This document shows positions 1,612 through 62,500 of a stretch of DNA of 64,000 bases, in pieces; the stretch's first letter is position 1; each line of letters begins with the position of its first letter. The DNA is taken from positions 1 to 64,000 of IMG/VR virus record IMGVR_UViG_3300044611_002115, one strand, 5' to 3'. This DNA comes from a virus. Under the pieces are notes generated by a model. It made no database searches and had not been told where the DNA came from. It was given only the letters and a program-made list of their open reading frames with translations. The position numbers and the translations under genes were made by a program.

Positions 1612-1859
1612 GAGTCATAGCCATAGACATTGACAGGACGGCGCTGGCGGAGCCGGAGCGCGTGCGTGCGCTGTATGAGTGCAGGGACAACTTCATAGTG
1701 CTGCACACGGCAAGGAGCGAGGCGATACGGGAGGAGACGGTGCAACAGTTGCAGCTCGCGGGCGTGCCCTACCACGCCCTCGTCATGGGAAAGCTGCGGG
1801 CGGACGTTTACGTGGACGACAAGAACCAAGGAGGACTACAATGGCCGACAGAATCTTAG
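1608..1859 (+). CDS. Minimal HAD-superfamily phosphatase-like protein
   Basis: IAIDIDRT (motif I), HTAR (II), K..ADVYVDDK (III/IV). Confidence 0.7.
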   Translation: MRVIAIDIDRTALAEPERVRALYECRDNFIVLHTARSEAIREETVQQLQLAGVPYHALVMGKLRADVYVDDKNQGGLQWPTES

Positions 1860-2539
1860 CCTTTAGCGGCGGGATGGATAGCTACATGCTCAAGCGCATG
1901 CACAAGTTCAGCGACGCGGAGTGCGTGTTTGTGGAGATGGGGACGAGGGAGAACCGGAGGGAGGCGGGGCTGCTGGACAAGCTGTTCCCCGACGTGCAGC
2001 GCGTGCAGCTTCCCCTCGTGCAGTGGGAGCTTCCCAATAAGATCATCCCGTTCCGCAACACCTTCCTCGCCCTAACCTTAGCGCAGCTCGCCCCGTCGCT
2101 CTACTTCGCCTTCACCGCTGGGGACACGACGCGGGACAAGGACTACGTGTTCAAGGCGGAGGTGGAGGGGATGCTGAACTACTTTGCAGGGGTGCCGGAG
2201 AAAGCGCCCTTTGGCGACGCGCGCTACGAAGTGCACATGCCCTTCAAGCCCTACACCAAGCGCGAGCTTGTGCGGCAGTTTATTGACGCTGGGTTTAGCG
2301 TGGAGGAGCTGCGCACGCGGACGGTGAGCTGCTACGAGGGGACGCCAGTGCCGTGCGGGGAGTGCCGCTCCTGCGTGCGCAAGTATGTCGCCCTCGCCGC
2401 TAATGGCATCAAGTGCGAGGGGTGGTTCTACAGCGACCCGCGCAAGCAACTTTCCGCGCTCCTAGACGAGAGCATAAGGAAAAACAGGAAACACGAAACG
2501 GAGGATATACTACTATGCACAAGCCAAAAACAGCAGTGA
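1841..2539 (+). CDS. queC: QueC-like 7-cyano-7-deazaguanine synthase, copy 1
   Basis: PP-loop FSGGMDS, IPFRN, Zn motif SCYEGTPVPCGECRSC; ATG 1841 follows GGAGGA. Confidence 0.8.
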   Translation: MADRILAFSGGMDSYMLKRMHKFSDAECVFVEMGTRENRREAGLLDKLFPDVQRVQLPLVQWELPNKIIPFRNTFLALTLAQLAPSLYFAFTAGDTTRDKDYVFKAEVEGMLNYFAGVPEKAPFGDARYEVHMPFKPYTKRELVRQFIDAGFSVEELRTRTVSCYEGTPVPCGECRSCVRKYVALAANGIKCEGWFYSDPRKQLSALLDESIRKNRKHETEDILLCTSQKQQ

Positions 2540-3183
2540 TGGTGACGGGCGGGATTGATTCAACCACGCTCCTTCACATGACCGCGCACCTCAACCCTAC
2601 ACCCGTGACAGTGGATTACGGGCACGACGCTTTTGGGCGTCAGGTGGAGATGCTGCAACCCCACATTGACAAGCTGGGACTCCCGCCGCTGGAGATTCTC
2701 AAGGTGGAGTTTCCCAAGTGGCAGCGCCGTGAGGGGCTGTTCACGCCGGGTTATGAGAGCCATGAGGTTGACCCGCTCAACGAGTGGGACAAGCTCCGCT
2801 ACGAGGAGTTCTTCATCGAAGGCCGCAACGCCACTATGGTTCTCGCCGCGCTCGCGTGGTGCAGCGCGCATAAGGTGGACGAGCTGCTCGCGGGCTACCT
2901 CTACGCTCCCGTCGAGTGGGAGAAGCGCCGCACCTACAAGCTAATGACGGGTGACAACTCGCCGCAGTTTGTGGACACGATGAACATGCTCACTAACGTC
3001 GGGTTCTCGCATCAGGTTCGCTTCCGCGCCCCGTTCTACGAGCTGCGCTGGGGCAAGGACGACGTGATTGCGGAGGGCAAGCGCCTCGGCGTTGACTTCT
3101 CCTCCACTCACTCCTGCTACTTCGTCCCCGCGTGCGGCAAGTGCGACAACTGCCTGCTCCGCGCTGAGTTTCTCGGAGCCTAA
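2515..3183 (+). CDS. queC: QueC-like PP-loop ATPase, copy 2
   Basis: VTGGIDS, VDYG, EGRN, DNSPQF, SCYFVPACGKCDNCLLR. Confidence 0.8.
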   Translation: MHKPKTAVMVTGGIDSTTLLHMTAHLNPTPVTVDYGHDAFGRQVEMLQPHIDKLGLPPLEILKVEFPKWQRREGLFTPGYESHEVDPLNEWDKLRYEEFFIEGRNATMVLAALAWCSAHKVDELLAGYLYAPVEWEKRRTYKLMTGDNSPQFVDTMNMLTNVGFSHQVRFRAPFYELRWGKDDVIAEGKRLGVDFSSTHSCYFVPACGKCDNCLLRAEFLGA

Positions 3184-3226
3184 ACCTTAGCAACCAAAAA
3201 ACCACGTTCTCCCCAGAACCCAATTT

Positions 3227-3661
3227 ATGAAACAGACCATCCGCAAGACCTACACCAACTTGAAAGCCGCGCACCGCCAATGGCGTCACGCGGGGCACTG
3301 CCACTTCGCGCACGGCGAGAACTGGACGCTGCACATCACTATGGCGTGCGAGAAGCTGGACGAGCAGAACTTCGTCATTGACTACGGCGCACTCAGGCCG
3401 CTGCGTGCGGAGATTGAGCAGCTCTTTGACCACACGCTGCTCATCGACCACGACGACCCAGCGCGTGCGCAGTTTGAGGCGCTGCACGAGCAGGGGTTGT
3501 GCGACCTGCGCATTGTGGAGAGCGCGAGCGCGGAGGGGCTGTGCAAGATCGTCATGGGGATGGCGGACAAGTGCGTGCGCGGACTCACGGGCGGGCGCGC
3601 GTGGGTTGAGGAAGTCACCGTTGAGGAGGACACTAAGAACACGGCGACGCTAAGGCTATGA
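3227..3661 (+). CDS. queD: 6-carboxy-5,6,7,8-tetrahydropterin synthase
   Basis: AAHR..HCHFAHGENW, FDHTLL, SAEGL, VEED. Confidence 0.9.
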   Translation: MKQTIRKTYTNLKAAHRQWRHAGHCHFAHGENWTLHITMACEKLDEQNFVIDYGALRPLRAEIEQLFDHTLLIDHDDPARAQFEALHEQGLCDLRIVESASAEGLCKIVMGMADKCVRGLTGGRAWVEEVTVEEDTKNTATLRL

Positions 3662-4368
3662 ACAAGCCCCTTCCAACCACAGAGCGCTTCCTAACCTTCC
3701 AAGGCGAAGGGGAGCACATGGGGCGCGCCGCGTTCTTCGTGCGCCTTTACGGGTGCCCGCTGCACTGCCCGTGGTGCGACAGCGCCGCGACGTGGCATAA
3801 AGATTATGTGCCCAAGCACATCAACAGGCTGCTGGTGGAGGACATTGTGGAGGAGGTGGTGAACTCCCATGCCCCCATCTGCGTCATTACAGGGGGCGAG
3901 CCTATGGTGCATGACTTAGGGCCGCTGGTGCAACAGTTGCAGCGCAACAGCATCGGCGTGCACTTGGAGACAAGCGGGGCTATGGACGGGGACTACTACC
4001 AGTTCGATTGGGTCACGCTCTCGCCCAAGTGGAGCAAGCTGCCCGTGCTGGACGCCTATGAAGCCGCTGACGAGGTTAAGATCATCGTGGAGGACGACAG
4101 CAGCATCAACAAGTGGATGGATCAACTGCGCCCCGCCTACAATGCTCACGGCTTCGTGTTCCCGACCATCTGGCTGCACCCAGAGTGGAGCAAGCGCAAT
4201 GACCCGCTCGTGCTCAACAGCATCACGGAGAGCGTGAAGCATAACCCCAACCTATTCCGCGCCGGATGGCAGCTTCACAAGTGCTACCGCGCCGACCTGC
4301 TGGACGCACGTGCAGACAAGCGCGTTGTGCCCCTTGGTGGAAACCCAGACCTATTGCCACTCACATGA
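3658..4368 (+). CDS. queE: 7-carboxy-7-deazaguanine synthase (radical SAM)
   Basis: FQGEG, GCPLHCPWCDS, ITGGEP, ETSG, LSPK, QLHK. Confidence 0.92.
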   Translation: MNKPLPTTERFLTFQGEGEHMGRAAFFVRLYGCPLHCPWCDSAATWHKDYVPKHINRLLVEDIVEEVVNSHAPICVITGGEPMVHDLGPLVQQLQRNSIGVHLETSGAMDGDYYQFDWVTLSPKWSKLPVLDAYEAADEVKIIVEDDSSINKWMDQLRPAYNAHGFVFPTIWLHPEWSKRNDPLVLNSITESVKHNPNLFRAGWQLHKCYRADLLDARADKRVVPLGGNPDLLPLT

Positions 4369-6498: not shown

Positions 6499-7980
6499 GT
6501 GGCAACCGCTGCAACAGTTGCACCTGACGCGGAGAAGGAAGCGGCGCAGCAGCTACACGCCGACCTTTTCATTAGGCTCGTCGCCCGCGCCCGCAAGGAC
6601 TTCCTCTCCTACCTCCTCCTCTTTAACCCGCCGGAGCGCGCGGAGTATGTGGTGGGGCAACTGCACGTGTTCCTCTCCGACATGCTGCAAGCGGTGGCGG
6701 TGGGCAAAGCGTGCAAGCGCCAAATCATCAACGTCCCTCCGCAACACGGCAAGTCAACGCTGGTGAGCAAGGAGTTTGTGTCGTGGATCATAAGCTACCA
6801 ACCGGGCATCCAAGTCGCCCTCACCTCCTTCTCGCACGAGCTGGTGACGGACTTTAGCAAGTGGGTGCGCTCCCGCGTGCAGTCCCCGCTCTACCAAAAA
6901 GTGTTTCCCAACTCCCAAGTGGACGAGGGCAACAACAAGGCGGCGCTGTGGCACTTGACCAACGGGAGCAGCGTGTGCGCAAAGAGCACGGGGAAGAAGC
7001 TCATCGGGCGGCGCGTGGACTTGCTCATCATCGACGATGCGCACAGCGGGAGGCAGGACGCGGAGAGCGTGCTCATGCGCAAGCGCATCCGCGAGTGGTA
7101 TTTTGGCGACTGCCTGACGCGCATGAGTCCCGAGGGCTACGTGTTCATCATCGGCACGCGCTGGCACCCAGAGGACTTGAGCGGGCATTTGACGAGCGAG
7201 GAGTATGAGGAGGGCATGCGCGCGTCGGGGCTTGTGCGGGAGATGTTCAACAAGATCAACCTGCCCGCGTTCAGCGAAGGGGACGGCGACCCGCTGGGGA
7301 GGAGCAGGGACGAGCCGCTGTTCCCAGAGATGCGAGGCAAGGAGTTCCTCGAAAACATGCGCGCAGCCCAAGCCCCCTACGAGTGGGAGTCACAGTTCCA
7401 AGGGCACCCGCAGACGAGCGGCAGCGGACAGGTGGACACGAAGAAAATTCACCGCATCACGCTCGCGGACGTGCCAAAGGATTTGGAGCGGACGAGGGGC
7501 TGGGATTTAGCGCTCAAGGAAAAGCAGACGAGCGACTTCACTGCTGGCGCGCTGTGCGCCTACGACCGCGCCGCCGACCACTTCTACATCATGGACATGG
7601 TGCATGAGAAAATGGTGTGGGCGAGGGCGAAGCCCGCCATCATCAAAATGTCCATGATCGACAAGGAGGAGCACGGCGTCGTTCGCATCGGCATGGAGGC
7701 GGTGAGCGGGTTCAGCATCGGGCGCGACGAGATGGCGCAGTCACTCCTCGGAGAGCTGCGCGTGGAGGAGCGGAACCCCAAGACGGACAAGCTGCTGAGA
7801 GCGCAGCCGTGGCTGAACAAAATTGAGGCGGGGAAGGTGAGCATGGTGGTGGGCGAGTGGAACAGGCGTTTCCTGCGCGAGCTGGCTGTGTTCCCAGACG
7901 GCGACCACGACGATCAAGTGGACGCAGTTTCCGTCGCGTGGGAAATGCTGTTCACCAAGCGCACGTTCCAGTTCGCCTGA
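6499..7980 (+). CDS. terL: Terminase large subunit
   Basis: PPQHGKS, LLIIDD, GTRWHPEDL, GWDLA, HDDQVDA. Confidence 0.95.
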   Translation: MATAATVAPDAEKEAAQQLHADLFIRLVARARKDFLSYLLLFNPPERAEYVVGQLHVFLSDMLQAVAVGKACKRQIINVPPQHGKSTLVSKEFVSWIISYQPGIQVALTSFSHELVTDFSKWVRSRVQSPLYQKVFPNSQVDEGNNKAALWHLTNGSSVCAKSTGKKLIGRRVDLLIIDDAHSGRQDAESVLMRKRIREWYFGDCLTRMSPEGYVFIIGTRWHPEDLSGHLTSEEYEEGMRASGLVREMFNKINLPAFSEGDGDPLGRSRDEPLFPEMRGKEFLENMRAAQAPYEWESQFQGHPQTSGSGQVDTKKIHRITLADVPKDLERTRGWDLALKEKQTSDFTAGALCAYDRAADHFYIMDMVHEKMVWARAKPAIIKMSMIDKEEHGVVRIGMEAVSGFSIGRDEMAQSLLGELRVEERNPKTDKLLRAQPWLNKIEAGKVSMVVGEWNRRFLRELAVFPDGDHDDQVDAVSVAWEMLFTKRTFQFA

Positions 7981-9503: not shown

Positions 9504-9901
9504 GCGCACCATTGCAACAGTTGCAGCGCCCGCCAGTGCTGCACCCCGACGACACACAAACCCTCTACCGCTGCCAAGCGCTCGCCGCGCACCTCTGCGC
9601 ACTCATAGGCGTGCCCGACGCAGTGCTGGAGCCAAAGCGCAGGCCGCTCGCGCTGTCAGCCGTGGGGCTGTGCTACGTGCAGGAGCGCCGCATGTCCGTC
9701 ACGCTGCGCTACAGGCAGCACGCGGAGGACGGGGGGCGCTGGTGGAGCAAGCCCCTGCCGTGGGAGGAAGTGCGGGACACGGTGGCGCACGAGTGCGCTC
9801 ACCTCCGCTACAGGGGGCACGGGGCGGAGTTCAAAGCGCTGCACGCGCGGCTGGCAGAAGCGGCGGAGCGCTGGGACGCAGCGCAGGGGAGGGCAGCGTG
9901 A
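9500..9901 (+). CDS. SprT/WLM-like zinc metalloprotease
   Basis: TVAHECAHLRYRGHGAEF (HExxH...H). Confidence 0.65.
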   Translation: MSAPLQQLQRPPVLHPDDTQTLYRCQALAAHLCALIGVPDAVLEPKRRPLALSAVGLCYVQERRMSVTLRYRQHAEDGGRWWSKPLPWEEVRDTVAHECAHLRYRGHGAEFKALHARLAEAAERWDAAQGRAA

Positions 9902-11662: not shown

Positions 11663-11877
11663 GCAGCGCCATCATCTTTGCGCTGTGCCTCGCGCTCCTC
11701 GTCACCCTGACGATGGAGCGCTTGCGCTGTAAGGCACTTGTCGCCCGCGCGCTGCGCGAGGGGCGGGTGCAGGGCTACCGCCGCGCCGTGCTGCACAGCC
11801 CCGCCATTCACAAGTCGCTGCAACTGTTGCAGCACAACCCATGCCCCGCACGGGGCGCAACCAAAGGAGAAGCATGA
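11659..11877 (+). CDS. Small membrane protein
   Basis: GTG start overlapping upstream stop; hydrophobic N-terminus. Confidence 0.5.
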   Translation: MSSAIIFALCLALLVTLTMERLRCKALVARALREGRVQGYRRAVLHSPAIHKSLQLLQHNPCPARGATKGEA

Positions 11878-13362: not shown

Positions 13363-13571
13363 ACACAGCGGCGCACGCTTCGCGCTACAGGGCGTCCAGC
13401 AGCGTCCGCACCCCCGCCAGCAGCCCCAGCGCTGCGCCCCCGCACAAGCGCACGCACTGCGCACGCAGGGGGCAGATATTTTTCGGCGCACGCAGGGAAA
13501 AAGGCATACGCCCTCGGGCGCTTCAACGACTTACAGAGCGAAAGAAAAAGTGCAACGGTTGCAATTTGCTG

Positions 13572-13599
13572 TTGACAATGAATCTGCAACAGCTACCTT
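13572..13599 (+). promoter_or_regulatory. Early-type promoter, copy 3 (palindrome at 13551 just upstream)
   Basis: TTGACA-ATGAATCTGCAACAGC-TACCTT; GTG 13606 is 7 nt downstream. Confidence 0.8.
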
Positions 13600-13605
13600 G
13601 GAGTC

Positions 13606-14436
13606 GTGAGCAACAACACCACATCAACGGCACTCGCAGCCACAAGCGAGCACAGCACACAAGTCGAAGTCGTCAACCACAGCAGCAAGCAGGTCGCGGA
13701 ATATAACGCGCTGCACGCCACGCTCATCAACACGGGACTCATGTTCCCCCGCGTGCAGTCCGAGAAGGCCAAGCAGCAGGAGGCCGCAGAGGACGCAGCG
13801 CGCGCCAAGCAGCAGCGCGAGGACGCGAAGCTCGCCGCCCTGTTCGCTCCCGTGCGCGAAATCAACCTCCGCCTCAAGTCCGAGTTCCCCACCGTCGGGG
13901 AGCGCGATGCCGTCAGCTACAGCATCAGCGAGACGCGCCGCAACACGGGGACATGGAGCCGCCATCGCGGGGAAATCATCGGCGTCACGATCCGCATGCA
14001 CGGGGCGCACGGCGTCACGCGCAACTTCCCGTTCAACAAGTCGGGGAGCATCAACTACGTGAAGATCGAAGCGCTGCTGCGCAATGCGTGGGAAGCCGCT
14101 GCCTCCCGCGTCGAGGAAGCCAAGCGCGTTGCCAACGCACGTGCAGCCGCCAAGGATGCGCTGCCCGAGGGCACGCTGGAGCGCGTCAAAGCGATCACCA
14201 AGACCACCTACGAGAGCGTCACTATGCAGGTCGTGGACGGCAAGGTGACGTTCTCGCACATGCACTATCCCGGCCAAGGGCGCAGCCCCTACGAGCGCGT
14301 CGTGTTCCCCGTCGCCAGCCCCGCCGCAGTGCTGCGCATCCTCGACATCCGCGAGGCCGCGAAGGCGCAGGAGAAGGCCGTGCTCGTGCAGGACGAAGCG
14401 CGCGGCATCAGCAGCGCTACACTCGCCGCCATCTAA
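13606..14436 (+). CDS. Hypothetical protein
   Basis: Long ORF, strongly biased codon usage. Confidence 0.7.
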   Translation: MSNNTTSTALAATSEHSTQVEVVNHSSKQVAEYNALHATLINTGLMFPRVQSEKAKQQEAAEDAARAKQQREDAKLAALFAPVREINLRLKSEFPTVGERDAVSYSISETRRNTGTWSRHRGEIIGVTIRMHGAHGVTRNFPFNKSGSINYVKIEALLRNAWEAAASRVEEAKRVANARAAAKDALPEGTLERVKAITKTTYESVTMQVVDGKVTFSHMHYPGQGRSPYERVVFPVASPAAVLRILDIREAAKAQEKAVLVQDEARGISSATLAAI

Positions 14437-15700: not shown

Positions 15701-15807
15701 GTGCTGCGGAGCTTTTTACGGGCCATTCTGTGCAAACTTGCCGCCTTGCCGCCCATCCCTCCAACCCCTACACTTTCCAACGCAGTAAACACCAACACCA
15801 AAACACC

Positions 15808-16821
15808 ATGAACACTACACCAAGAAAACCCATGCTCGCGGAGACGTGCGACGACATCAACGCGCTGCGCTTCCCGCTACTAGCGACCGCAAAATTGGAC
15901 GGCATCCGCTGCCTCACGCTTCCCCACACGGGAGGCTTGTTCCGCTGCAACGCCGTGTCGCGCAAGTTCAAGCCCATCCCGAACGCGCACATCCGCGATT
16001 GGGTGGAGACGCACCTCCCAGCGGGACTCGACGGGGAGCTAATGATTGTGGCGGAGGACGGCAGCGCGCTGCCCTTCCAAGCCACCACGAGCGGCGTGAT
16101 GAAACACACGGGCACGCCCTGCTTCCAGTATCACGTTTTCGACTACTGCGGGCGCGGGCTGGACACGCCCTACACGGAGCGGCTGCAACAGTTGCAATTC
16201 CTGCGCCTCCCGCGCGGCACGTGCAAGCTCGTGCTCCCCGTGCTCATCAACAACGTGGAGGAGCTGCTGGCGTTCGAGGCCAAGTGCCTCGCGGAAGGCT
16301 ACGAGGGCGTCATGGTGCGCACGCCGGATGGCCCCTACAAGGAAGGCCGCAGCACAGTGCGCGAGCAGTGGCTACTAAAGGTCAAGCGCTTCAAGGACGA
16401 CGAGGGCTACGTGTGCGGGGCGGAGGAAGCGAGGGAGAACACCAATGAGGCGGGGAAGGACGAGCTGGGGCACACGAAGCGCAGCACGGCAAAGGCGGGC
16501 ATGCGGGGGAAGGGGCACGCGGGGTCGTTTATCGTTAAGCCCTGCACGCAGGGAGCGCCCACAGCAGCGGACTTCGCCTACATCAAAGAGAACGAGCATA
16601 GGCTGGACGCTGCACTCGCCGCCCACCCCTACCTGTTCAGCGCCAGCACGAGCGTCATTACAAAGGGCAAGCGGTTCATCCCCATGAGCAGCGTGCCCGC
16701 GCTGCTGCACAGGATGGTGGTTTACAAGCACCAGCCCACGGGCGTCCTAGTCAAGCCCCGCTTCCCCGTCATTAAGGGCTACAGGGACGCCATTGACATC
16801 GGGGAGCCGGAGCAGGATTAG
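15808..16821 (+). CDS. ATP-dependent DNA ligase
   Basis: KLDGIRC, LDGEL, VFD, EGYEGVMVR, LLKVK, PRFP. Confidence 0.92.
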   Translation: MNTTPRKPMLAETCDDINALRFPLLATAKLDGIRCLTLPHTGGLFRCNAVSRKFKPIPNAHIRDWVETHLPAGLDGELMIVAEDGSALPFQATTSGVMKHTGTPCFQYHVFDYCGRGLDTPYTERLQQLQFLRLPRGTCKLVLPVLINNVEELLAFEAKCLAEGYEGVMVRTPDGPYKEGRSTVREQWLLKVKRFKDDEGYVCGAEEARENTNEAGKDELGHTKRSTAKAGMRGKGHAGSFIVKPCTQGAPTAADFAYIKENEHRLDAALAAHPYLFSASTSVITKGKRFIPMSSVPALLHRMVVYKHQPTGVLVKPRFPVIKGYRDAIDIGEPEQD

Positions 16822-43393: not shown

Positions 43394-43409
43394 GAGAGGA
43401 GCACACGAC

Positions 43410-44822: not shown

Positions 44823-44823
44823 C

Positions 44824-45994: not shown

Positions 45995-47218
45995 ATGGCA
46001 TCAGACTCTTTTTCCAACCCCGTGCACTTCCGCGATTGGTTCCGCGTAGTCATGCGAAACTGGGCGCAGCACTTATCCCCAGCGGAGGCCATGCTTGTGC
46101 TGTTCGTGCTGGACAGGACGATGGGGTGGGGGAAGGAGTGGGAAATTGTCACGTGCCAGCAGATGCAGGACGGCATCTACTACCAGCGGGACGACGGAGC
46201 TGTGGTGGAGGTGGCAGGGGGCATCGGGCTAAGCGCGGACAGGGCGCAGCGCTTGCTCACGGGGCTTGTGGAGCGGGGCGTGCTGCGGGCGCGGGGCACA
46301 GCGGGGCGGGCGCGGCAGCTTGCGCTCAACTACGAGTGGACGCCTGACACGGACATGAAAGTATCCCAGCGCCCAAAGCAGTTGCAGCGCGGGCTGAAAG
46401 TGCCCAAATCAACCCCCGTTAATATAACGGCCACCCCCGTTAATATAACGCCACCCCCCCGTTATATTAACGGACTAAGAGTAGCAAAGCAACAGGACGG
46501 AAACAAAAGAGAACGGACTGCCGCGCGAGAGCGCGGCGAGGGGAGGCTGGCGGAGGTAGCGGACACAGCAGCACAGCGCACGCGGGACAAGCACGCAGCC
46601 AAGCTCTCCCGCCTAGCCAATGCGGACACGCTCAGCCTAGCCTCCCTTTCCTCCGTGTGGGGCGCGGCATGCGCAGCAGCGCACAGCGGGGAGTCACTGC
46701 CCGACGTGAGGCAGAAGGACTTCCTCATCCTGCAAGCGTGCATGCGCAGGCACAGCGCAGGCGAGCATTCCGTGCGCTTCGTTCCCCTGCTGCAATGGAG
46801 CGTGGCGCAGTGGCGCAGCATAGTGAGCGCCTACTTCCGCTGGATGCCCGATGCCCCCGTGCTGCCGGAGCCTCGTTTCTTTGTGCGCTTCATAGACAGG
46901 TTCCTCAACGCGCACTCGCGCTTGGAGGAGCTGGAGCGCTTGCAGAACATGACGACGCGGGAGCAAATGGTCTATCACCTCACGGCGCGCAAGGGCATGT
47001 CACAGGAGGCGGCGGAGCGCGAGGTGGACGAGAAGCTGGGGCTGCTAAGGATCAAGCAGGACATAGAAGCGGAGCGGAAAAAACTGCAACAGTTGCAGTC
47101 GAGCAGCGTGGAAGCTGTGGAGTCAAAACAACGCCTTGCCTTAATGCAGCGGGAAGCTAAGCAAGTCGAGGCGCGGGCGGTAACATTAACCAAAGGAACA
47201 TTCGACACATGGGAATAG
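45995..47218 (+). CDS. Replication initiator protein (lambda O-like N-terminal wHTH)
   Basis: LSPAE..VL.FVLDRTMGWGK; internal iterons; upstream of loader and DnaB. Confidence 0.7.
   Translation: MASDSFSNPVHFRDWFRVVMRNWAQHLSPAEAMLVLFVLDRTMGWGKEWEIVTCQQMQDGIYYQRDDGAVVEVAGGIGLSADRAQRLLTGLVERGVLRARGTAGRARQLALNYEWTPDTDMKVSQRPKQLQRGLKVPKSTPVNITATPVNITPPPRYINGLRVAKQQDGNKRERTAARERGEGRLAEVADTAAQRTRDKHAAKLSRLANADTLSLASLSSVWGAACAAAHSGESLPDVRQKDFLILQACMRRHSAGEHSVRFVPLLQWSVAQWRSIVSAYFRWMPDAPVLPEPRFFVRFIDRFLNAHSRLEELERLQNMTTREQMVYHLTARKGMSQEAAEREVDEKLGLLRIKQDIEAERKKLQQLQSSSVEAVESKQRLALMQREAKQVEARAVTLTKGTFDTWE
46412..46473. repeat. Iteron-like repeats, probable replication origin
   Basis: ACCCCCGTTAATATAACG twice (21-bp period) plus inverted copy CCGTTATATTAACGG. 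Confidence 0.7.
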
Positions 47219-49082: not shown

Positions 49083-51920
49083 ATGAACATTGACGAGCTT
49101 GAGACGGAGAACTTGAACGTGGGGGGAAACCCCGACGCGCAGATTGCAGTCGTGTGCGACAGCCCATCACAGAACGTGTGGGCGGCGGGGAACGTGATGA
49201 GCACGCACGCCATGAACGTGTTTGGGCAGCAGGCGAAGGACTGCGGCATGACTAAGGACGACTTCTTTTTCGTCACGTGCTCCCCGCCCATCCCAGAGGA
49301 GCATGCGGTGAGCGAGGGGCGCGTGAGCAAGTTCGTGCAGCCTTACGGGGAGGAGCTGATGCGCACGCTGCAACAGTTGCAGCACTGCAAGCTGGTGATC
49401 TACTTGGGCAAGACAGCGGGGCGGCAGGTGCACGGGCGCAGCATTAAGATCAACTCGCTGCGCGGGCGCTTCCAAAACCTACCCATCAACGGGAGGCAGG
49501 TTCCCGTGCTGCCCATGCTAAGCCCCGCCAACGTGCTGCGCAGGCCGGAAGTGGCGAGCATATTCAACGCGGACTTCCACCAAATCACAGCGTTCCGCGA
49601 GGCGGGCTGGAACGTCAAGCGCTACGAAGCGGCGCGGGTGACGACAAAGTATCAGTGGGTCACAGACCTTAGCGCCATCCTCGCCAACCCTCCCAAGGCG
49701 CTCGCGCTGGATACGGAGACGCGTGGCTTGTGGGGAAAGCCCCTGCTGGCAACAATGAGTTGGGGCAAGGGGCACGGCATCTGCATCCCCTTAGATCACA
49801 CCTATTACACGGACATGACGGAGGCGGACGAGCGCAAGCTGCACGCGCAACTCCGCAATCTGCTCGCCAACCCGCGCGTGGCGGTGGCGGGGCACAACTT
49901 AGGGTTCGACGTGGCGGCGCTGCGGCGCATTAACATTGAGGTGGCGAACTGGTATTGCGACACCATGCAGCTTGCCTTCGCGGCGGACGACAACATGCTG
50001 AGCAAGTCGCTCGCGGATTGCGTGAAGCGCTGGGTGCCGGAGCTTGCGGGCTACAGCGACAGCTTCGACGCCACAGTGGACAAGGAGCACATGGAGCTGG
50101 TGCCGCTGGAAAAGATGCTGCCCTATGCGGCGGGCGACGCGGAGGCCACGTTCCTGCTTGCGCAGCGCCTAGTGAAGCTGGTGAAGGAGGACAGCAGGCA
50201 ATGGACTTGCTTCGTCAAAGTGCAGATGCCCGTGCTGCGGATGTTTGTGGGGATGAAGGAGCAGGGGATACTCATTAACCAAGAGGCGCTGCGCACGCTG
50301 GAGGAGGAGATGGCGGTGAGCGAGCGGGAGCTATACCGCAAGCTCATCCGGCGCGTGCCAGCGGAGGTGAAGCGCAAGCACATTGACAAGGGGCTGGCGT
50401 TTAGCAGGGACGAGTTCGTGCGCGACATCCTGTTCAGCAAGGAGGGCTTCGGCCTAACTCCCGTCGTGTTCACTAAGACCACGAGCATGCTAAAGGGTGC
50501 GGCGCGCATACCCAGCACGAGCGCGAAGGATCACCTGCCGTTTTTTGCAGAGGACAACAGCTTCGTCGTGGACTTGATCCAATACCAGAAGCTCGCCAAG
50601 ATGCGCAGCACCTACGTCGGCAGGGAAAGCAAGCGGGTGGTGACGCGGGTGGTGATGAAGAAGGATGGGACGATGCCAGCGGCGCTGGGGAAGAAGCTGG
50701 AGCGCGCGGGGGTGGAGCTGGACTTAGCGACACGCTCCGCGCTGGTGCAGGGGGTGCGGGCACGCACGCGCAGGCGGGTGCTGGAGTTTGACGACAGGCA
50801 GCTCAACGTGGCGCTGAGCGTGCCTATCGGGGAGGGTGCGGACAACTTGCTGGTGACTGACCGCGACCAACTGTTCCTGTCCCAATACAGCGAGCCGACG
50901 GGGTTCTGGCAGCACATCATGGAGGACGGGCGCATCCATCCCAGCTTCCACCTTCACCGCGTAGTCACGGGGCGCAGCAGCAGCAGCGATCCGAATGCGC
51001 AGAACTTTCCCAAGCGCGGCGCGCTCGCCAAGCAGTATCGCAAAATCTTCATCCCCTCGGACGGATACAAAATTATTGAGGCCGACCTTAGCCAAGCGGA
51101 GCTGCGCATTGCGGCGTGGATGGCAGGGGAGACGACCATGCTGCGCATCTACCGCGAGGGCGGGGACATTCACGCAGCAACAGCGGCGGCGATTCTCGGC
51201 ATCACAATGGAGCGCTTCTCCGCACTCAAGGGCAGCAAGGAGGAGGTGCCCGCGAAGTATAAGGTGGGCGGGTTTGATGGAAAGACGTGGGGCGAGTATT
51301 ATGACTTCAAGCGCTTCCAAGCAAAGGCGGTCAACTTCGGGTTCCTCTACGGCATGGGGTGGAAGACGTTCCGCGTGTATGCGAAAACGGACTACGGCCT
51401 CAACTTGAGCGAGGAGCAGTCCATCGCCATGCGCCGCGCGTTCTTCGCCCTCTACCCCCGCCTCGAAGCGTGGCACAAGAGCATGAGGGCATTCGTGCAG
51501 CTTCACGGCTACGTGCGGGGGCTTCACGGCGCGCTGCGCAGGCTCCCCAGCATCGACAGCGACGACGAGGGCGTGCGGGGCGACTGCGAGCGGCAGGCAA
51601 TCAACAGCCCCGTGCAGCGCTTCGCGTCCGACTTGGGGCTGATTGGCATGTTCCGCTTCTGCGAGAACGCGCCCCGCGACGTTGTGCGCCCGCTCGCCTT
51701 CATTCACGACGCGGCAGTGCTGGAGGCGCGGGAGGACTGCGTGCGGGAGTGCGCAGGGGGAATCAAGTGGGCGATGCAGACGCCCCCGCTGGAGGAGTGG
51801 TTCGGCATCAAGTCTCCCATCCCCATCCTTGCGGACGTTTCCGTGGGGACTTCGCTGGGGGCGACGGAGGAGCTGGACGTGGCAGCAGCCGCGCCAAGCT
51901 GGATCAAAATTCAGTGTTGA
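49083..51920 (+). CDS. polA: Family A DNA polymerase with N-terminal UDG-like and 3'-5' exonuclease domains
   Basis: DTET, HNLGFD, YAAGD; TGRSSSSDPNAQN, ADLSQAELR, KAVNFGFLYG, HDA; N-term LGKTAG, SPANVLR. Confidence 0.93.
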   Translation: MNIDELETENLNVGGNPDAQIAVVCDSPSQNVWAAGNVMSTHAMNVFGQQAKDCGMTKDDFFFVTCSPPIPEEHAVSEGRVSKFVQPYGEELMRTLQQLQHCKLVIYLGKTAGRQVHGRSIKINSLRGRFQNLPINGRQVPVLPMLSPANVLRRPEVASIFNADFHQITAFREAGWNVKRYEAARVTTKYQWVTDLSAILANPPKALALDTETRGLWGKPLLATMSWGKGHGICIPLDHTYYTDMTEADERKLHAQLRNLLANPRVAVAGHNLGFDVAALRRINIEVANWYCDTMQLAFAADDNMLSKSLADCVKRWVPELAGYSDSFDATVDKEHMELVPLEKMLPYAAGDAEATFLLAQRLVKLVKEDSRQWTCFVKVQMPVLRMFVGMKEQGILINQEALRTLEEEMAVSERELYRKLIRRVPAEVKRKHIDKGLAFSRDEFVRDILFSKEGFGLTPVVFTKTTSMLKGAARIPSTSAKDHLPFFAEDNSFVVDLIQYQKLAKMRSTYVGRESKRVVTRVVMKKDGTMPAALGKKLERAGVELDLATRSALVQGVRARTRRRVLEFDDRQLNVALSVPIGEGADNLLVTDRDQLFLSQYSEPTGFWQHIMEDGRIHPSFHLHRVVTGRSSSSDPNAQNFPKRGALAKQYRKIFIPSDGYKIIEADLSQAELRIAAWMAGETTMLRIYREGGDIHAATAAAILGITMERFSALKGSKEEVPAKYKVGGFDGKTWGEYYDFKRFQAKAVNFGFLYGMGWKTFRVYAKTDYGLNLSEEQSIAMRRAFFALYPRLEAWHKSMRAFVQLHGYVRGLHGALRRLPSIDSDDEGVRGDCERQAINSPVQRFASDLGLIGMFRFCENAPRDVVRPLAFIHDAAVLEAREDCVRECAGGIKWAMQTPPLEEWFGIKSPIPILADVSVGTSLGATEELDVAAAAPSWIKIQC

Positions 51921-52441: not shown

Positions 52442-52496
52442 CCAACCCGCAGCGGGCAGGGTTCCATCCCCTGCTCGCTGCAACTGTTGCAACACA

Positions 52497-53298: not shown

Positions 53299-54314
53299 CA
53301 CAGCCAGAACTTCTCAGCATACTAGACGAGGCCGCAGTGAGCGTGGTGAGCCGACGCCCAAACCACGCGGGGTGGCTTGCGTGCTTGTGCCCGCTTGCGG
53401 AGTGGCTGCACGAGCGGGGCAGGGACACCAACCCCAGTTTTTTCGTGAAGGTCAACCCCAAGGGCATATCCTCCTTCCACTGCTTCACGTGCAAGCAGCA
53501 CGGGCGCACAAGCTCGCTCATGCGCCTGTTGCAGCACTACAGGGAGGAGGACATGGACGACCTTATTATCCGCGCCGACCTAAACGACATGCGCGTGGCG
53601 CTGGGAGATTTTGAGCAGGAGGGCGAGGAGGTGCCGGAGCGGGAGGAGCTGGACATGGACGTGTTCGCCAATATGTATCCGCTCGCGTGGGAAGTGCCGG
53701 AGTGCCGCGAGTATCTCCAGCGCAGGGGAGTCACCAGCGCCGCCTCGCTCACGATGGGGCTAAAGTTTGACACCCGCGAGCAGCGCGTGCTCTTTCCCGT
53801 CATGGGGCGCAGCGGCAAGCTCTACGGGTTCAGCGGGCGCAGCATCCTGCACCCCAGCGCCTACCCCTTCCCCCGCTACAGCAAGCATCGGGACTATTCC
53901 TTCCGCAAGGAGCTGTGTCTGCTGGGAGAGCATTTGGTGCAGAAGGGGAAGCCCGTGCTGCTTGTGGAGGGGCTGTTTGCCTACGCCCACATGATAAGCA
54001 TTGGCGCGCGTGGGTGGTGCAACCCCGTGGCAAGCATGGGCAGCAGCTTGAGCGACTTCCAGCGCGACCTGCTTATTGAAATCGGGGAGCCTGTTGTGCT
54101 GTGCTACGACAACGACCATGCAGGGGACGAGGGGCTGTTCGGCCCGTGGGACAGGCACGTGGGCGCGCACAAGGGCGGGGGTGCAGTGGACACGCTCAAA
54201 AAGGAGCTGCCCACGAAGCTCGCCTTATACCCGCAGGGCGTGGACGACCCCGACGACCTTACGCTGCAACAGTTGCAGCGCATGCTAAGCGTTGACCACG
54301 AGCTTTGCAGTTGA
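53295..54314 (+). CDS. dnaG: DNA primase (Zn finger + TOPRIM)
   Basis: CP..H...D.NPS..HCFTC, FSGR, VEGLF, YDNDHAG, DPDD. Confidence 0.88.
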   Translation: MTQPELLSILDEAAVSVVSRRPNHAGWLACLCPLAEWLHERGRDTNPSFFVKVNPKGISSFHCFTCKQHGRTSSLMRLLQHYREEDMDDLIIRADLNDMRVALGDFEQEGEEVPEREELDMDVFANMYPLAWEVPECREYLQRRGVTSAASLTMGLKFDTREQRVLFPVMGRSGKLYGFSGRSILHPSAYPFPRYSKHRDYSFRKELCLLGEHLVQKGKPVLLVEGLFAYAHMISIGARGWCNPVASMGSSLSDFQRDLLIEIGEPVVLCYDNDHAGDEGLFGPWDRHVGAHKGGGAVDTLKKELPTKLALYPQGVDDPDDLTLQQLQRMLSVDHELCS

Positions 54315-55780: not shown

Positions 55781-57199
55781 ATGAACACCCCGCACAGCAC
55801 AGCAGCACAGGCGCAGGCAGACGCGCTCCTATGGATACCCTTCGGGGCGTTCACACGGACAAGCGCGGACACGCTGCGCAGGCGCTTGACTTGTGTTGTG
55901 CGGGGCTTCCGCGACGACGCGGAGGATGTGGAGATTAGGAACTACGTGCTAGACAGAGACGCGCAGCGCGTGGGAGTTCCAATCCACTTCGGGCTGCAAC
56001 TGTTGCAGTCCTGCTCCCTGCGAGGGGCATACACACTTTCAAAAACATTAGGCGACGGGCGCGCCATAGCTGTCAGCAAGTTCCCAGACCCGCACCACCC
56101 AAAGGCATCCCCTAACCAAGCGGAGTTAATGTCCGCAGTGCTACAGCACGCGCGGGGCAGCATGGTGACGCTGGTGGAGTCGCCCACGGGCAGCGGCAAA
56201 ACAGTGGTGGCACTTAACACCATTGGGCGCTTGCAACGCGCCGCGCTCATCATTGTCACCAACAAGGTGCTCGCCGCGCAGTGGAGGCGGGAGGCCGCGC
56301 TGCACTTGGGGCTTGCTGATGGGGACATAGGTTTAGTGGAGGGGGCGAAGTGCGAATACTTGGGCAAGGCGATTGTGGTGGCTGTGATTCACAACCTAGT
56401 TATGAAGCCGCTGCCGGAGGACTTTGTGCAGCAGTTCGGAATCGTCGTGTGGGACGAGGCGCACAGGCTGGGGGCTGTGATGTTTTCGCAGTCCCTCAAG
56501 CTCTTTCCCTGCAAGCACCGCATCGCCCTAACAGCTACGCCCACGCGCAAGGACGGGGCGGAGTGCTTGTTCCTCGACTACTTCGGCCCGCCCGCAGTGC
56601 ACGGACTAAGCGACGCGCTGCCCTGCACGTGCCGAGTCGTAAACTTCGACACCTACATCAAGGACTCCACGGCTATGAGCAGCGGGGAGCTGATGAACAG
56701 GCTGGTGCATCACCCGCGCCGCAACGACGCGCTGGTGGCTATCATCCAATCGCTCTACCTAAAGGGGCGTCACGTGCTAGTGCTCTCCGACAGGGTTAAG
56801 CACCTGCAACTCCTCATGCGGCTGTGCGCTAAAGGCGCGCGCGCAATCCAAGCAGGGGACATGGGGCTGTTTTGCCGCTCCTACAAGGACGGGAAGAAAA
56901 AGAAGCAGCACAACGCCAAGCAGCTTGCGCTCGTCAGCGACAGCGCCCGCGTGGTGTTTAGCACCTACGGCATGGGCAAGGAGGGGCTGGACATAGCACG
57001 CTTGGACGCTGGGCTGGATGCAACGCCGAGGGCAGACGGGGTGCAGGCAATAGGCCGAATCCGCAGACCGTTGCCAAACAAGCCCCGCCCCGTGTGGTTC
57101 ACCATACGGGACAAGGGGGTTCCGCTGCTGTGCGCCTACACGGGCGCGAGGCTGAGGGAATACAGGGAAAACAATGTGGAAGTTATCGACCATGAATAA
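55781..57199 (+). CDS. Superfamily 2 DNA helicase
   Basis: PTGSGKT, DEAH, LTATP.R.DG, EGLDI, QAIGRI.R. Confidence 0.9.
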   Translation: MNTPHSTAAQAQADALLWIPFGAFTRTSADTLRRRLTCVVRGFRDDAEDVEIRNYVLDRDAQRVGVPIHFGLQLLQSCSLRGAYTLSKTLGDGRAIAVSKFPDPHHPKASPNQAELMSAVLQHARGSMVTLVESPTGSGKTVVALNTIGRLQRAALIIVTNKVLAAQWRREAALHLGLADGDIGLVEGAKCEYLGKAIVVAVIHNLVMKPLPEDFVQQFGIVVWDEAHRLGAVMFSQSLKLFPCKHRIALTATPTRKDGAECLFLDYFGPPAVHGLSDALPCTCRVVNFDTYIKDSTAMSSGELMNRLVHHPRRNDALVAIIQSLYLKGRHVLVLSDRVKHLQLLMRLCAKGARAIQAGDMGLFCRSYKDGKKKKQHNAKQLALVSDSARVVFSTYGMGKEGLDIARLDAGLDATPRADGVQAIGRIRRPLPNKPRPVWFTIRDKGVPLLCAYTGARLREYRENNVEVIDHE

Positions 57200-57686
57200 A
57201 CCAACCGAAAAAAGAGTTTACGACCCCAAGTGGCTCGCCCGCTACAATAAGCAGCGCAAGCAGCGCTATCAATCCGACCCCACCTACAGGGCGCACGTGC
57301 GGGAGGCTAACAGGCGCAGCTACAGAAACCGCGCCATTGTCAGCAACCCCGTGGTGGTTACAGCCAGCGACGTGTCCGCACACGGGCAGACGCGCCCCAC
57401 GTTGACGGAGGCGGAGAGCTACTCGCCCGCGCTGTGCTTTACAGTGGAGGAGCTGGGAATGGTGCTTGGGGGCTTAGACCCGTCCACGCTCTACCGCTGG
57501 ATCACGCGCAATATCCTGCCCTACCCGCAGCGGACAGCCTTAGTGCACGGGCAACCCGTGGGGGTTTACACTTTGGCACAAGTTAAGTCGGTGGCCGTAA
57601 TTCTGCGTGACCACTACAGCAAAAAAGCCTACCTTAGAAAGTCGGATAGCGACACCATCACCAAACTGTTCGCGGCAGTCAAATAG
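57192..57686 (+). CDS. HTH DNA-binding protein (MerR/excisionase-like)
   Basis: FTVEELGMVLGGLDPSTLYRWITRNILP. Confidence 0.65.
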   Translation: MNKPTEKRVYDPKWLARYNKQRKQRYQSDPTYRAHVREANRRSYRNRAIVSNPVVVTASDVSAHGQTRPTLTEAESYSPALCFTVEELGMVLGGLDPSTLYRWITRNILPYPQRTALVHGQPVGVYTLAQVKSVAVILRDHYSKKAYLRKSDSDTITKLFAAVK

Positions 57687-57724
57687 CTGCAACAGTTGCA
57701 ACAAAAGAAAGACACCATAACACC

Positions 57725-60365: not shown

Positions 60366-61243
60366 GCCTCCTGCGCAGCATGCAGGAGCATGTCCGCCCG
60401 CAGCGCGTCCGCAATCGCGCGCAAAGGCCCGCAGCAGCGCCCGCACTGAGCGAGGGCTACATAACGCGCATGGTGGAGGAAGCGGACGCACAGCCCGACA
60501 GCAGCCGCGTGCGGGAGGGCTACATCCACGTCTCCTCCCTGCTCTCCTTCTGCCCGCGCCTCTACAGGCTCGCAGCAGTGGACGACATCCCCATCGTCAA
60601 CCTCCCGCGCGCAGGCGACCGCATCGTGTGGGCGCTGGGGAGGGCGGCGGAAAAGCACGTGCGCGACGCAGTGCTGGCTCACGTGGGGCTGGGGAACGTG
60701 TATGGGGTGTGGCGCTGCAACTGCGGCATGGTGGCCTACGAGGGGCTTCACAGGGAGCTGCGTTGCACGCACTGCGCCACCCCCGCCAACAATTTTGGCG
60801 AGCTGCCCGTGTTCGACCACGAGCTGCGCATCAGCGGCTCCCCTGACATCCAACTGCACGACGCGGGGAGCAGGCGCATCGTGGAAATCAAGAGCATCAA
60901 CAAGCGGGAGTTTGAGGAGCTGGAGCGCCCCAAGCCCGACCACGTGTTTCAAGCCTCCTTCTACGTGGACTTGCTCCGCGTGATGGGCGAACCCGTGCAC
61001 GAGGAGCTGGCGATATTTTACGTCTGCAAGGACTACACGTTCCGCTCGCCCTACAGGGAGTTTCATGTGGGGGCGGGAGACATGGCAATGCAGATCGCAG
61101 CGGCGAAGGCGAGCGTGGCGCAGTTGCGGGCGTGCGAGATGGGAGGGGCGCTGCCGCCCAAGCTCCCCGTGTGCAGCAGCGCGGCGACGCCGACAGCGCG
61201 CAAGTGTGTGGCGTGCGCGAGCTGCTTTGGGCGAAGGAATTGA
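60362..61243 (+). CDS. Cas4-like PD-(D/E)xK exonuclease
   Basis: HVSSL..CPR, SGSPD, IVEIKS, Q...Y, C-terminal C..C...C. Confidence 0.75.
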   Translation: MSLLRSMQEHVRPQRVRNRAQRPAAAPALSEGYITRMVEEADAQPDSSRVREGYIHVSSLLSFCPRLYRLAAVDDIPIVNLPRAGDRIVWALGRAAEKHVRDAVLAHVGLGNVYGVWRCNCGMVAYEGLHRELRCTHCATPANNFGELPVFDHELRISGSPDIQLHDAGSRRIVEIKSINKREFEELERPKPDHVFQASFYVDLLRVMGEPVHEELAIFYVCKDYTFRSPYREFHVGAGDMAMQIAAAKASVAQLRACEMGGALPPKLPVCSSAATPTARKCVACASCFGRRN

Positions 61244-61244
61244 C

Positions 61245-61796
61245 ATGAAAAAAACACAAGCACAAACAGCTCGCCCGTGGCTCTGGCAGGGCAGGGAGTT
61301 CACCACAGCGCCGGAGGAGTGGCTGGGGTTCGTTTACCTCATCACCTCTCCCAGCGGGAAGATGTATGTGGGGAAAAAATTGTTCTGGAGCCGCATCCGC
61401 CGCAAGCCGCTCAAGGGAACCCGCCGCGTGCGCATCGAGCGCAAGGAAAGCGACTGGAGAAAATACTTCGGCAGCAGCAACGAGCTGGTGGCGGAATTGG
61501 GGCGCACGGGGCGCTCTTTTTGGACGCGGGAAATCCTCCACTTGTGCGAGTCGAAATGGGAGTGCTCGTTTGCGGAGCTGAAAATTCAACTGGCGCTGAA
61601 CGCGCTTGTCCGCACAGATTTTTTCAACAGCATCATCCACGTGCGCCTCAACCAGCCACCTTCTAGCTTTACCCCGTCGCGCCTTGACGCTACAGTGGCA
61701 CGCGTTCAGCAGCAGTATGGAGGATCAACGACCACCAAAATCTCAACGTGTGCTCCGGTTCGGATTCGTTCGCGCGGACGGCAAGGTGTTTCGTGA
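61245..61796 (+). CDS. GIY-YIG-family nuclease-like protein
   Basis: GFVYLIT..SGKMYVGKK, ESDWRKYFGSS, F.REIL. Confidence 0.7.
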   Translation: MKKTQAQTARPWLWQGREFTTAPEEWLGFVYLITSPSGKMYVGKKLFWSRIRRKPLKGTRRVRIERKESDWRKYFGSSNELVAELGRTGRSFWTREILHLCESKWECSFAELKIQLALNALVRTDFFNSIIHVRLNQPPSSFTPSRLDATVARVQQQYGGSTTTKISTCAPVRIRSRGRQGVS

Positions 61797-62475
61797 ATAC
61801 AGCCCAACTTGTGCAAACGGGGAGCGCTGGATAATGCCTTGGGAGTTTGAGCTGCTAAAGAAAAGGCAGCAGGAATATCAAAAGCGGGAGCACGTGCGGG
61901 CCAAGAACAATGCGTGGAACAGGGAGAACAGAAAACAGCCCCACATCCGCAAGCGGGCGCGAGAGTATAAAAAGAAGCGCATGCAAAGCAACCCATCAGC
62001 CCGTGTTGCTGCCGCCCTACGTGGCAGGGTGCGGGAGGTGTTCCTTTCACAAGGACTGCGCAAGACGGACAAGACGTTCAAGTTGGTGGGGTGCAGCCAC
62101 GCGGAGCTGCGTGCGCATCTTGAGGCGCAGTTCACGGAGGGCATGACGTGGGAAAATTACGGCGCATGGGAAATCGACCATCGCATCCCGTGCAGGGCGT
62201 TCGACCTCACGCTGCCCGAGCACAGGAGCGCCTGTTTTCACTTCACAAATTTGCAGCCCCTCTGGCGCACGGACAACCGCAGGAAATCGGGAAAATTGAA
62301 GGAGCAGCTCGCCCGCGATGCACTTTTTTCAAAAAATTATTTCAACTCCATCCTGCACGTGCGGCTCAACCAGCCTCCCGCCTCCTTCCTGCTGCGGCAC
62401 CGCATAAACACAAGCGCAGCGAGCGGGGGCACCCCCAGCCGCTTCGACGCCCCCGTGCGCAGCAGGAGACGCTGA
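61717..62475 (+). CDS. HNH homing-endonuclease-like protein, C-terminally fused to a duplicate of the upstream gene's 3' end
   Basis: MTWENYGAWEIDHRIPC..FHFTNLQPLW..DN.RK. Confidence 0.75.
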   Translation: MEDQRPPKSQRVLRFGFVRADGKVFREYSPTCANGERWIMPWEFELLKKRQQEYQKREHVRAKNNAWNRENRKQPHIRKRAREYKKKRMQSNPSARVAAALRGRVREVFLSQGLRKTDKTFKLVGCSHAELRAHLEAQFTEGMTWENYGAWEIDHRIPCRAFDLTLPEHRSACFHFTNLQPLWRTDNRRKSGKLKEQLARDALFSKNYFNSILHVRLNQPPASFLLRHRINTSAASGGTPSRFDAPVRSRRR

Positions 62476-62500
62476 GCGCTGCAACTGTTGCAATTTCCTG

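Follow-up and report, generated by a model that had tools for sequence, protein, structure and literature searches.

Dispersed operator-like repeats are already known from phages, namely the stoperators of Cluster A mycobacteriophages and the 17-bp palindromic repeats (TGTTCGGNNNCCGAACA) of Cluster O mycobacteriophages, which their describers expected to be bound by a dimer but to which they assigned no function (PMC4351075), a question open since 2015. On a plasmid, the core of the OB operator bound by KorB (TTTAGCGGCTAAA) is a 13-bp palindrome with a single centre base (PMC11790492). Here we describe a 13-bp palindrome, TGCAACNGTTGCA, which recurs at regular intervals along a phage genome from the IMG/VR database (record IMGVR_UViG_3300044611_002115, 77,539 bp; hereafter G000). 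The window, i.e. the stretch of 64,000 nucleotides to which coordinates refer unless stated otherwise, comprises bases 1-64000 of this record, which is treated as circular because its ends overlap by 127 bp. DNA sequencing runs holding the stretch come from lake water only, and no RNA run is among those listed. We propose with moderate confidence, judging from sequence comparison, that the palindromes are high-affinity sites for a phage-encoded dimeric DNA-binding protein and that they form a conserved, spacing-controlled array along the whole chromosome.

The preliminary description of this DNA had reported 24 perfect copies of TGCAACNGTTGCA, and an exact motif scan of the window recovers every one of them. 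The whole record holds 30 perfect copies and a single one-mismatch copy (TGCAACAGGTGCA, 24492-24504), which lies in the middle of the 3.96-kb gap between the sites at 22374 and 26334. Dinucleotide-preserving shuffles yield 0.01 copies on average, and codon-block shuffles yield 0. The centre base is A or T and once G, as had been noted (window counts: A 15, T 8, G 1). The 6-bp arms are invariant and the centre base is free, symmetry reaches weakly into the flanks (gC-TGCAACWGTTGCA-Gc), and the arms occur at no other spacer length in G000. A free centre between invariant arms is what would be expected of a dimer that does not read the centre base.

The palindrome has been kept in relatives. A TerL search led to G001, a syntenic 81-kb IMG/VR phage with a TerL 58% identical to that of G000 and other proteins 30-65% identical, which carries 22 perfect and 15 one-mismatch sites with flanks of the form TTT...AAA. 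An IMG/VR fragment (L139) with a guanine-cytosine (GC) content of 45%, related via structural proteins, has kept the identical 13-mer. Searches with PolA and the AAA+ ATPase led to cultured phages that share with G000 only the replication/recombination module at 41.7-63.8 kb, and each of them has a version of the box. The general form, TG(C/A)AA-N3-4-TT(G/T)CA, is present in multiple copies in the six phages compared (G000, G001, Aeromonas HJ05, Rhizobium L338C, Pseudomonas SM1 and Rhodobacter RcDurkin) and in further IMG/VR loci. HJ05 has 24 sites of the form TGCAAC-NN-GTTGCA at up to one mismatch; L338C has TGCAACNNGTTGCA and TGCAACNGTTGCA (43 and 11 copies in 100 kb) with any centre dinucleotide, so that 1-bp and 2-bp spacers are both present in one genome; SM1 has 14 copies of TGCAA-RCGY-TTGCA in 50 kb; and RcDurkin has 24 copies of TGCAATCGATTGCA in 50 kb at up to one mismatch. 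Seven more IMG/VR loci carry TG(C/A)AAT-YR-ATT(G/T)CA, several per locus in most, with none found in L270. The box has thus been kept across the clade despite protein identities of 24-65% and GC contents of 45-62%.

Together with the box travels a module encoding DnaB, PolA, a DnaG-type primase, an SF2 helicase, RecA, a Holliday-junction resolvase, an exonuclease and a protein annotated as gp32-like in RcDurkin. An AAA+ (Ycf46-like)/DUF1257/DUF2997 gene set (41756-45180 in G000) accompanies the module in every box-carrying phage. The array hence appears to be a clade-wide system linked to one replication/recombination gene module, an aspect that the preliminary description had overlooked. Scanning IMG/VR with an AT-flanked 17-mer retrieved G001 and the multi-site loci L139, L160 and L167, of which only L139 has protein similarity to G000; a GC-flanked 17-mer retrieved singletons only, and among the matches listed for a 14-mer scan of IMG/VR there were single chance matches. 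A megablast of 20 kb against cultured phages gave no match, and related-locus searches from genes A1 and A3 (for the latter see below) returned only G001, or no usable conserved stretch. In the literature searched, the box sequences were not found in a phage context, HJ05 is not mentioned, and publications on L338C and RcDurkin do not describe the motif. The same box in phages of Rhizobium, Aeromonas, Pseudomonas, Rhodobacter and lake water is one addition to the known cases of dispersed repeats.

The 14-bp versions fit the operator pattern TGnAAnCGnTTnCA of LacI/GalR proteins (TGCAATCGATTGCA in RcDurkin, TGCAARCGYTTGCA in SM1 and TGCAACCGGTTGCA in HJ05), and near-identical strings occur in papers on MalR and CcpA sites. 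This may suggest that a host protein binds the box, for example as a LacI/GalR-operator mimic that recruits or titrates a host regulator. However, the box of G000 and G001 has 13 bp with a single centre base, and the free centre dinucleotide and the two spacer lengths in L338C do not suit a hinge helix that reads a central CG; an even palindrome of 14-16 bp with central CG is absent from G000 and occurs only in RcDurkin, SM1 and part of HJ05. In addition, the hosts span alpha- and gammaproteobacteria, and the GC content of the phages varies as widely as stated above. A host binder appears improbable.

G000 also carries QueC, QueD and FolE genes, and palindromes are typical of type II recognition sites, so that an enzyme of DNA modification, or a restriction-like one, might recognise the box, e.g. 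an enzyme linked to the 7-deazaguanine genes. On the other hand, HJ05 has the lattice and gives no tblastn match to the Que/FolE open reading frames (ORFs) of the window, a partial survey showed no methyltransferase shared by the six phages, and neither regular spacing nor the promoter phasing described below would be explained. The loading of modification machinery, which the preliminary description had listed among the possible functions, is unlikely on the same HJ05 evidence, and we regard a modification target as the least probable of the readings considered here. An injection or packaging ratchet, from the same list, would be speculative.

Gaps between neighbouring sites in G000 average 2.58 kb and range from 1,224 to 4,978 bp, with a coefficient of variation (CV) of 0.38. 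The regularity claimed in the preliminary description was borne out by a gap-length test, in which 0 of 2,000,000 random placements reached the observed CV; a smallest gap of this size has an analytic probability of 8e-9. Random sites weighted to gene ends like the real ones gave a mean CV of 0.96 and reached 0.38 in 0 of 20,000 trials. All six genomes tested are regularly spaced, at CVs of 0.38-0.61: 0.61 in G001 (P = 6e-4), 0.43 in HJ05 (P <5e-6), 0.51 in L338C (P <5e-6), 0.48 in SM1 (P = 0.005) and 0.46 in RcDurkin (P = 3.5e-5). The spacing is kept in six lineages even though half of the sites are replaced, which suggests that each site acts over a limited range of about 1-2.5 kb. Such a range would be in keeping with roadblocks or insulators that separate transcription units, or with the nucleation of a spreading or bridging protein. 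Regular spacing in every lineage tested is a second addition, and it points to a limited range per site rather than to a mere set of operators.

At 2-3 kb, the spacing of the box is comparable in size to lagging-strand fragments, and the box is inherited with the replication/recombination module while the structural genes differ between the lineages that carry it. Both observations would suit sites that serve replication or recombination, be it as priming, helicase-loading or nick sites or as recombination hot spots at about Okazaki-fragment spacing, with a palindrome working on either strand. Against this, the RepO-like initiator gene (45995-47218) has iterons of its own: three tandem repeats of about 21 bp, each with the palindrome CCGTTAATATAACGG, lie at 46412-46475, an arrangement resembling a lambda-type origin, in which iterons are embedded in the gene of the initiator. 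The box as origin iteron is ruled out, this different repeat filling that role. Furthermore, the centre bases A and T show no regional polarity along the G000 genome, no box-specific nickase was identified, and the phasing to -35 boxes and gene ends would be left unexplained. We thus consider a role in replication or recombination quite unlikely.

All convincing genes of G000 lie on the + strand. By longest-ORF calls, 14 sites of the window are coding and 10 intergenic, compared with 16 and 8 in the preliminary description, the difference being one of start-codon choice. Coding sites use only two reading frames, (L/V)Q(Q/L)L(Q/H) and ATVA, as had been observed before, with a split of 8 and 6 rather than 11 and 5; the third frame, which would read Cys-Asn-x-Cys, is used by no coding site. 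The LQQLQ sites need minority codons (in G000, CAA 278 vs CAG 582 and TTG 191 vs CTG 777). Among 20 mappable sites of G000, 10 have a G001 site at the orthologous place, 7 of them within 7 bp, where chance would give about 4%. Four coding sites fall on the same codons in G001, with the flanking 95 nt merely 41-61% identical. They include the sites at 47085-47097 in the 3' part of the initiator ORF (G001 63352; flanks 49% identical), at 49369-49381 in the 5' part of the PolA ORF (G001 66441) and at 55995-56007 in the 5' part of the SF2 helicase ORF (G001 73802; flanks 41% identical). Since the same codons are kept while the flanks diverge this far, selection acts on the DNA. The minority CAA and TTG codons held at orthologous codons in G001 argue for the same conclusion, i.e. 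for selection on the DNA and not the peptide, as the preliminary description had maintained.

Other orthologous sites lie at gene boundaries: at 28641-28653 in the last codons of ORF 27755-28666 (G001 42199), at 31045-31057 at the stop of ORF 30561-31061 (G001 44619), at 52479-52491, 5 nt before an ATG at 52497 (G001 70254), at 54265-54277 at the 3' end of the primase ORF (G001 72174), and at 57688-57700, just after the stop of A3 and 24 nt before an ATG at 57725 (G001 75442). This placement is general. Across the whole G000 genome, 14 of 19 coding sites fall into the first 15% or the last 14% of their ORF, and sites within 60 bp of a stop codon reach 2.6 times the expectation (P = 0.001); the corresponding enrichment is 2-3.7-fold in all six phages. 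One-mismatch variants have their defect in the upstream arm in 33 cases and in the downstream arm in 13 (P = 0.0045), and G001 contains 11 identical copies of an asymmetric 13-mer, TGAAACTGTTGCA, always in the same orientation on the coding strand. The bias towards the upstream arm could reflect functional polarity or, alternatively, the A-over-T skew of the coding strand.

With all genes on one strand and sites clustering where genes meet, in many cases 0-30 nt ahead of a start codon, the element might act in RNA, where a UGCAA-CWG-UUGCA hairpin in polycistronic transcripts could be a processing, stability or translation signal; the Arg-rich N-terminus of A3 would be in line with this. However, the stem is invariant and the loop free, compensatory and G-U changes are absent, and TGAAAC and TACAAT, the common variants, disrupt a pair instead of forming a wobble. 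With a centre of 1-2 nt, moreover, the full stem cannot close. An RNA element is very improbable. An intrinsic terminator was rejected as well, as no T-run follows the sites and a 1-2 nt centre forms no loop; the relatives have T-rich sequence before the site and A-rich sequence after it.

A second kind of placement, also overlooked in the preliminary description together with that at gene boundaries, is at promoters. A promoter family of G000, TTGACAATGAATCTGCAAC, combines weak -10 boxes with a spacer that holds one half-site of the palindrome; copies lie at 13572-13606 (+), start at 8143, 10338, 41665, 51917 and 62501, and one more is found at 68071 of the genome. As an ATG follows about 7-15 nt after the -10 box, transcripts look leaderless or nearly so. 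The full palindromes at 13551-13563 (the only one with centre G) and 62480-62492 each end 8 nt before the -35 box of a family promoter (TTGACA at 13572 and the A4 promoter at 62501, respectively), so that their centre is at about -50, and the place of the latter is conserved in 9 of 10 lineages. The intergenic site at 41629-41641, upstream of the AAA+ gene, lies 23 nt before the -35 box at 41665; the intergenic site at 22374-22386 has a TTGACA 18 nt downstream; and a family promoter follows the site at 54265 by about 38 nt. Nine nt downstream of the site at 28641, and upstream of the gene at 28810, stands TTGACT-N17-TGATTT, an arrangement kept in G001.

Related promoter families, TTGACnAYGAATC in G001 and L139 and TTGACAAAGGATCGGTTC in L338C, have kept the -35 box and a conserved spacer. 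Of the 23 family promoters of G001, about 11 have a box 21-24 bp before the -35 box, as have 14 of the 24 of L338C (TTGACAAAGGATCGGTTC...TAGATT) at 21-26 bp; at one L338C promoter the box lies over the start region. Given this fixed distance from -35 boxes in G000, G001 and L338C, part of the array belongs to promoter architecture. At several box-less family promoters of L338C (e.g. 8533, 40419 and 69875; L261/L262), a hairpin resembling a terminator, together with a T-run, stands where the others have the box, and the upstream palindrome and such a hairpin may be interchangeable in this phage.

The proposal of the preliminary description that a dimeric protein binds along the whole chromosome remains the best-supported reading, given invariant arms, a free centre, and conservation at codon level and clade-wide; the binding itself we infer. 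A dimer at sites 8-10 bp upstream of the -35 box (centre at about -50) of sigma70-like promoters would set promoter activity. The other sites, mostly at gene boundaries, would be held at least about 1 kb and at most about 5 kb apart, a spacing at which no part of the genome would be out of range of a bound dimer. These sites might, for example, act as roadblocks or insulate transcription units from one another, or they might nucleate a protein that has a histone-H1-like tail. Of the two candidate binders, the product of 62599-63783 (A4) is considered the likelier, the MerR-type protein of 57192-57686 (A3) coming second.

About 17 genes are common to all six phages, and two of them, leaving the initiator aside, look like genes for sequence-specific DNA binders. 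These two are the candidates at 62599 and 57192 that the preliminary description had named, both conserved in every box-carrying phage; its third candidate, at 84, gained no support. The initiator was rejected as binder, having iterons of its own, and a PHROG scan of 20 ORFs at 64-75 kb of G000 showed no DNA-binding family.

A4 (62599-63783, +; 394 aa; PHROG 17202), a candidate binder or key target, has an SH3/Tudor/KOW-like N-terminal domain, a disordered linker rich in K, A and P, which carries the annotation HC2 (histone-H1-like) in two homologues, and a well-predicted, conserved helical C-terminal domain. Its residues 160-292 align to the DNA-binding domain of ParB (6s6h_B, Z 8.4; 1vz0_A, Z 7.9). 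Weak matches to DUF3102 (on the SM1 orthologue) and to Plasmid_parti_N were found, and searches of the A4 profile against the PDB, Pfam and NCBIfam returned low-complexity or faint matches only. The family is present in all lineages, and its gene is preceded by a box, at a distance of 26-150 bp, in 9 of 10 distinct lineages, compared with 3 of 6 for the next best module gene. This is what an autoregulated binder, or a key regulated target, would look like.

A3 (57192-57686, +; 164 aa) follows the SF2 helicase gene in all six phages and belongs to a family of 487 clusters that is present in all lineages and has no match, and no family model, in Pfam. Its structure model (predicted local distance difference test score, pLDDT, 94) comprises an N-terminal helical hairpin and a MerR-type winged helix-turn-helix (HTH) at residues 80-164. 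The latter aligns to domains of the MerR family (3gpv, 3hh0, 7cla, 2vz4, 3d6y, 5i41 and 2zhh) with VIA-align Z scores of 5.0-6.4 and root-mean-square deviations of 2.6-3.5 A over 67-73 residues. Sequence searches of A3, and of the products of 59698 and 57725, against PDB chains gave no match. MerR operators lie inside a long spacer of 19-20 bp, whereas the full palindromes of G000 lie upstream of the -35 box and its promoter spacers measure about 17 bp. On the long helical hairpin (57192-57330), all orthologues of A3 conserve the pattern N-x-(R/K)3-x-RY-x-x-DP-x-YR. In SM1 (L263), a reading frame of the A3 family at 39853-40359 (hidden Markov model E 6e-26) is not annotated as a full coding sequence; it overlaps the end of gp043 and includes gp044.

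Several points weigh against the reading as an array of binding sites for A4 or A3. Near most sites of G000 no promoter can be recognised, repressors do not classically sit with their centre at about -50 of near-consensus promoters, and regulation of initiation alone leaves the regular spacing unexplained. With regard to the proteins, the likeness of A4 to ParB is middling, the unrelated helical protein Raf1 scoring higher (Z 9.9), and HTH_ParB (PF17762) has no sequence match in A4. The recognition-helix residues of A3 and A4 show no visible co-variation with the inner bases of the box among 11 sequences. Both proteins are tied to the box by co-occurrence alone, which shared ancestry could produce as well.

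Rather than regulatory, the lattice might be mainly structural: a protein would nucleate at the sites and, by spreading or bridging across 1-2 kb, coat, compact or anchor the whole chromosome or mark it as self. The result would be a kind of phage chromatin, perhaps protecting from host nucleases or organising replication and packaging, with promoter-proximal sites that are merely autoregulatory. A minimum and a maximum gap are kept in six lineages, as a limited range per site predicts, sites occur inside long genes without a nearby promoter, and A4 combines its disordered linker with a helical domain like that of partition proteins. On the other hand, coating needs neither the preference for gene boundaries nor a fixed phasing to -35 boxes. 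ParB_N (PF02195) has no match in G000 or G001 at E <= 0.01, which argues against a sliding clamp of the ParB type; the domain was found in HJ05, L338C and SM1. Loading of a ParB clamp at the sites of G000 is hence not supported, and these sites are spread evenly, unlike parS sites, which cluster by parAB. We consider a mainly structural lattice unlikely. The binding-site array proposed here might also include a lattice, in that the boxes nucleate A4 (partition-type HTH and histone-H1-like tail), which coats or loops the chromosome in units of about 2.5 kb and thereby insulates transcription units; this extension, too, is a rather doubtful one. If it were true, the rising number of sites during replication could time late expression, or the DNA would be shielded from host nucleases, and phages of both Alpha- and Gammaproteobacteria would have kept such a system.

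The remaining palindromes of the window are as follows. In the left part, the site at 1741-1753 (centre A) lies 62 nt into the QueC-like ORF 1679-2539 in the ATVA frame, that at 3929-3941 reads VQQLQ in ORF 3658-4368 (an uncertain ORF call), and that at 6510-6522 lies 11 nt into the TerL ORF 6499-7980. The site at 9513-9525 is intergenic by longest-ORF calls, and that at 11819-11831 (centre T) falls on a gene junction. ORF 15730-16821 contains the site at 16184-16196, read as LQQLQ, and the site at 18384-18396 is located between ORFs 17718-18359 and 18397-19767. Further right, the site at 26334-26346 begins 29 nt into ORF 26305-26841, and the long ORF 34945-36930 (the tape measure gene according to the preliminary description) has one site in its 5' part (35124-35136) and another in its 3' part (36651-36663). 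The site at 43961-43973 is near the 3' end of ORF 43302-44042, and that at 45861-45873 is intergenic, upstream of the initiator gene.

Two further features of G000 may be mentioned. Many start codons follow A/C-rich leaders (e.g. ACAAAAGAAAGACACCATAACACC) with no clear Shine-Dalgarno sequence, as at 57701-57724 of the window and at 68394-68415 and 73461-73486 of the genome. Between the exonuclease gene and the A4 promoter, an ORF at 61065-61796 encodes a SegE-type GIY-YIG endonuclease domain (Pfam E 1e-29) and is probably a homing endonuclease gene.

The box and the promoter family are useful for annotating these poorly annotated phages, and two concrete candidate proteins and four cultured phages can now be named. 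Among described systems, Cluster A stoperators number roughly 25-35 copies per genome. Like the palindromes of G000 they are 13-bp sites at gene junctions; a single phage protein binds them and silences transcription genome-wide (PMC4351075). However, stoperators are asymmetric, follow the direction of transcription and occur in temperate phages that have an immunity repressor, whereas the site of G000 is a perfect palindrome and a strand bias appears only in the one-mismatch variants mentioned above (33 vs 13); no integrase or repressor was identified among the G000 ORFs scanned in a partial survey. In Bacillus subtilis, the ram sites, about 25 dispersed palindromes of 14 bp, are bound by RacA, which has a winged HTH of the MerR type. 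The A3 model aligns to the DNA-binding domain of RacA (5i41, Z 5.2), a predicted likeness at the level of the fold only; RacA is a cellular chromosome anchor, and the ram sites gather near the origin, without regular spacing.

Nearest in design is KorB-OB of the IncP plasmid RK2, which likewise has many copies dispersed round a replicon of about 60 kb. Some OB operators adjoin promoters and others are far from any, and G000 shows the same mixture of proximal and distal palindromes, some ending 8 nt before a -35 box and most of them without a recognisable promoter in the vicinity. KorB is a global silencer that regulates its own operon, and the helical domain of A4, as modelled, is weakly similar to the DNA-binding domain of ParB. 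The differences are that KorB slides by means of an N-terminal ParB CTPase domain, which was not found in G000, that there are 12 OB sites compared with 30 in G000, that the sequence is another one and the replicon a plasmid, and that regular spacing is no known feature of OB sites, unlike those of G000.

The repeats of Cluster O differ from the box in sequence and arm length (TGTTCGGNNNCCGAACA vs TGCAACNGTTGCA), and their phages have another replication module; in the right half of the Cluster O phage Dylan, the repeats are not regularly spaced (CV 1.07), and no member of the A3 family was found there. On the other hand, Cluster O phages, which are not obviously temperate, carry more than 30 palindromes with invariant arms and a variable centre, genome-wide and in both intergenic and coding positions, as G000 does with its 30 copies, and they share with G000 a homologous AAA+ ATPase. 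If the array described here silences, insulates or coats the genome, it would represent a general, so far undescribed layer of phage genome organisation, and would offer a handle on the puzzle of the Cluster O repeats.

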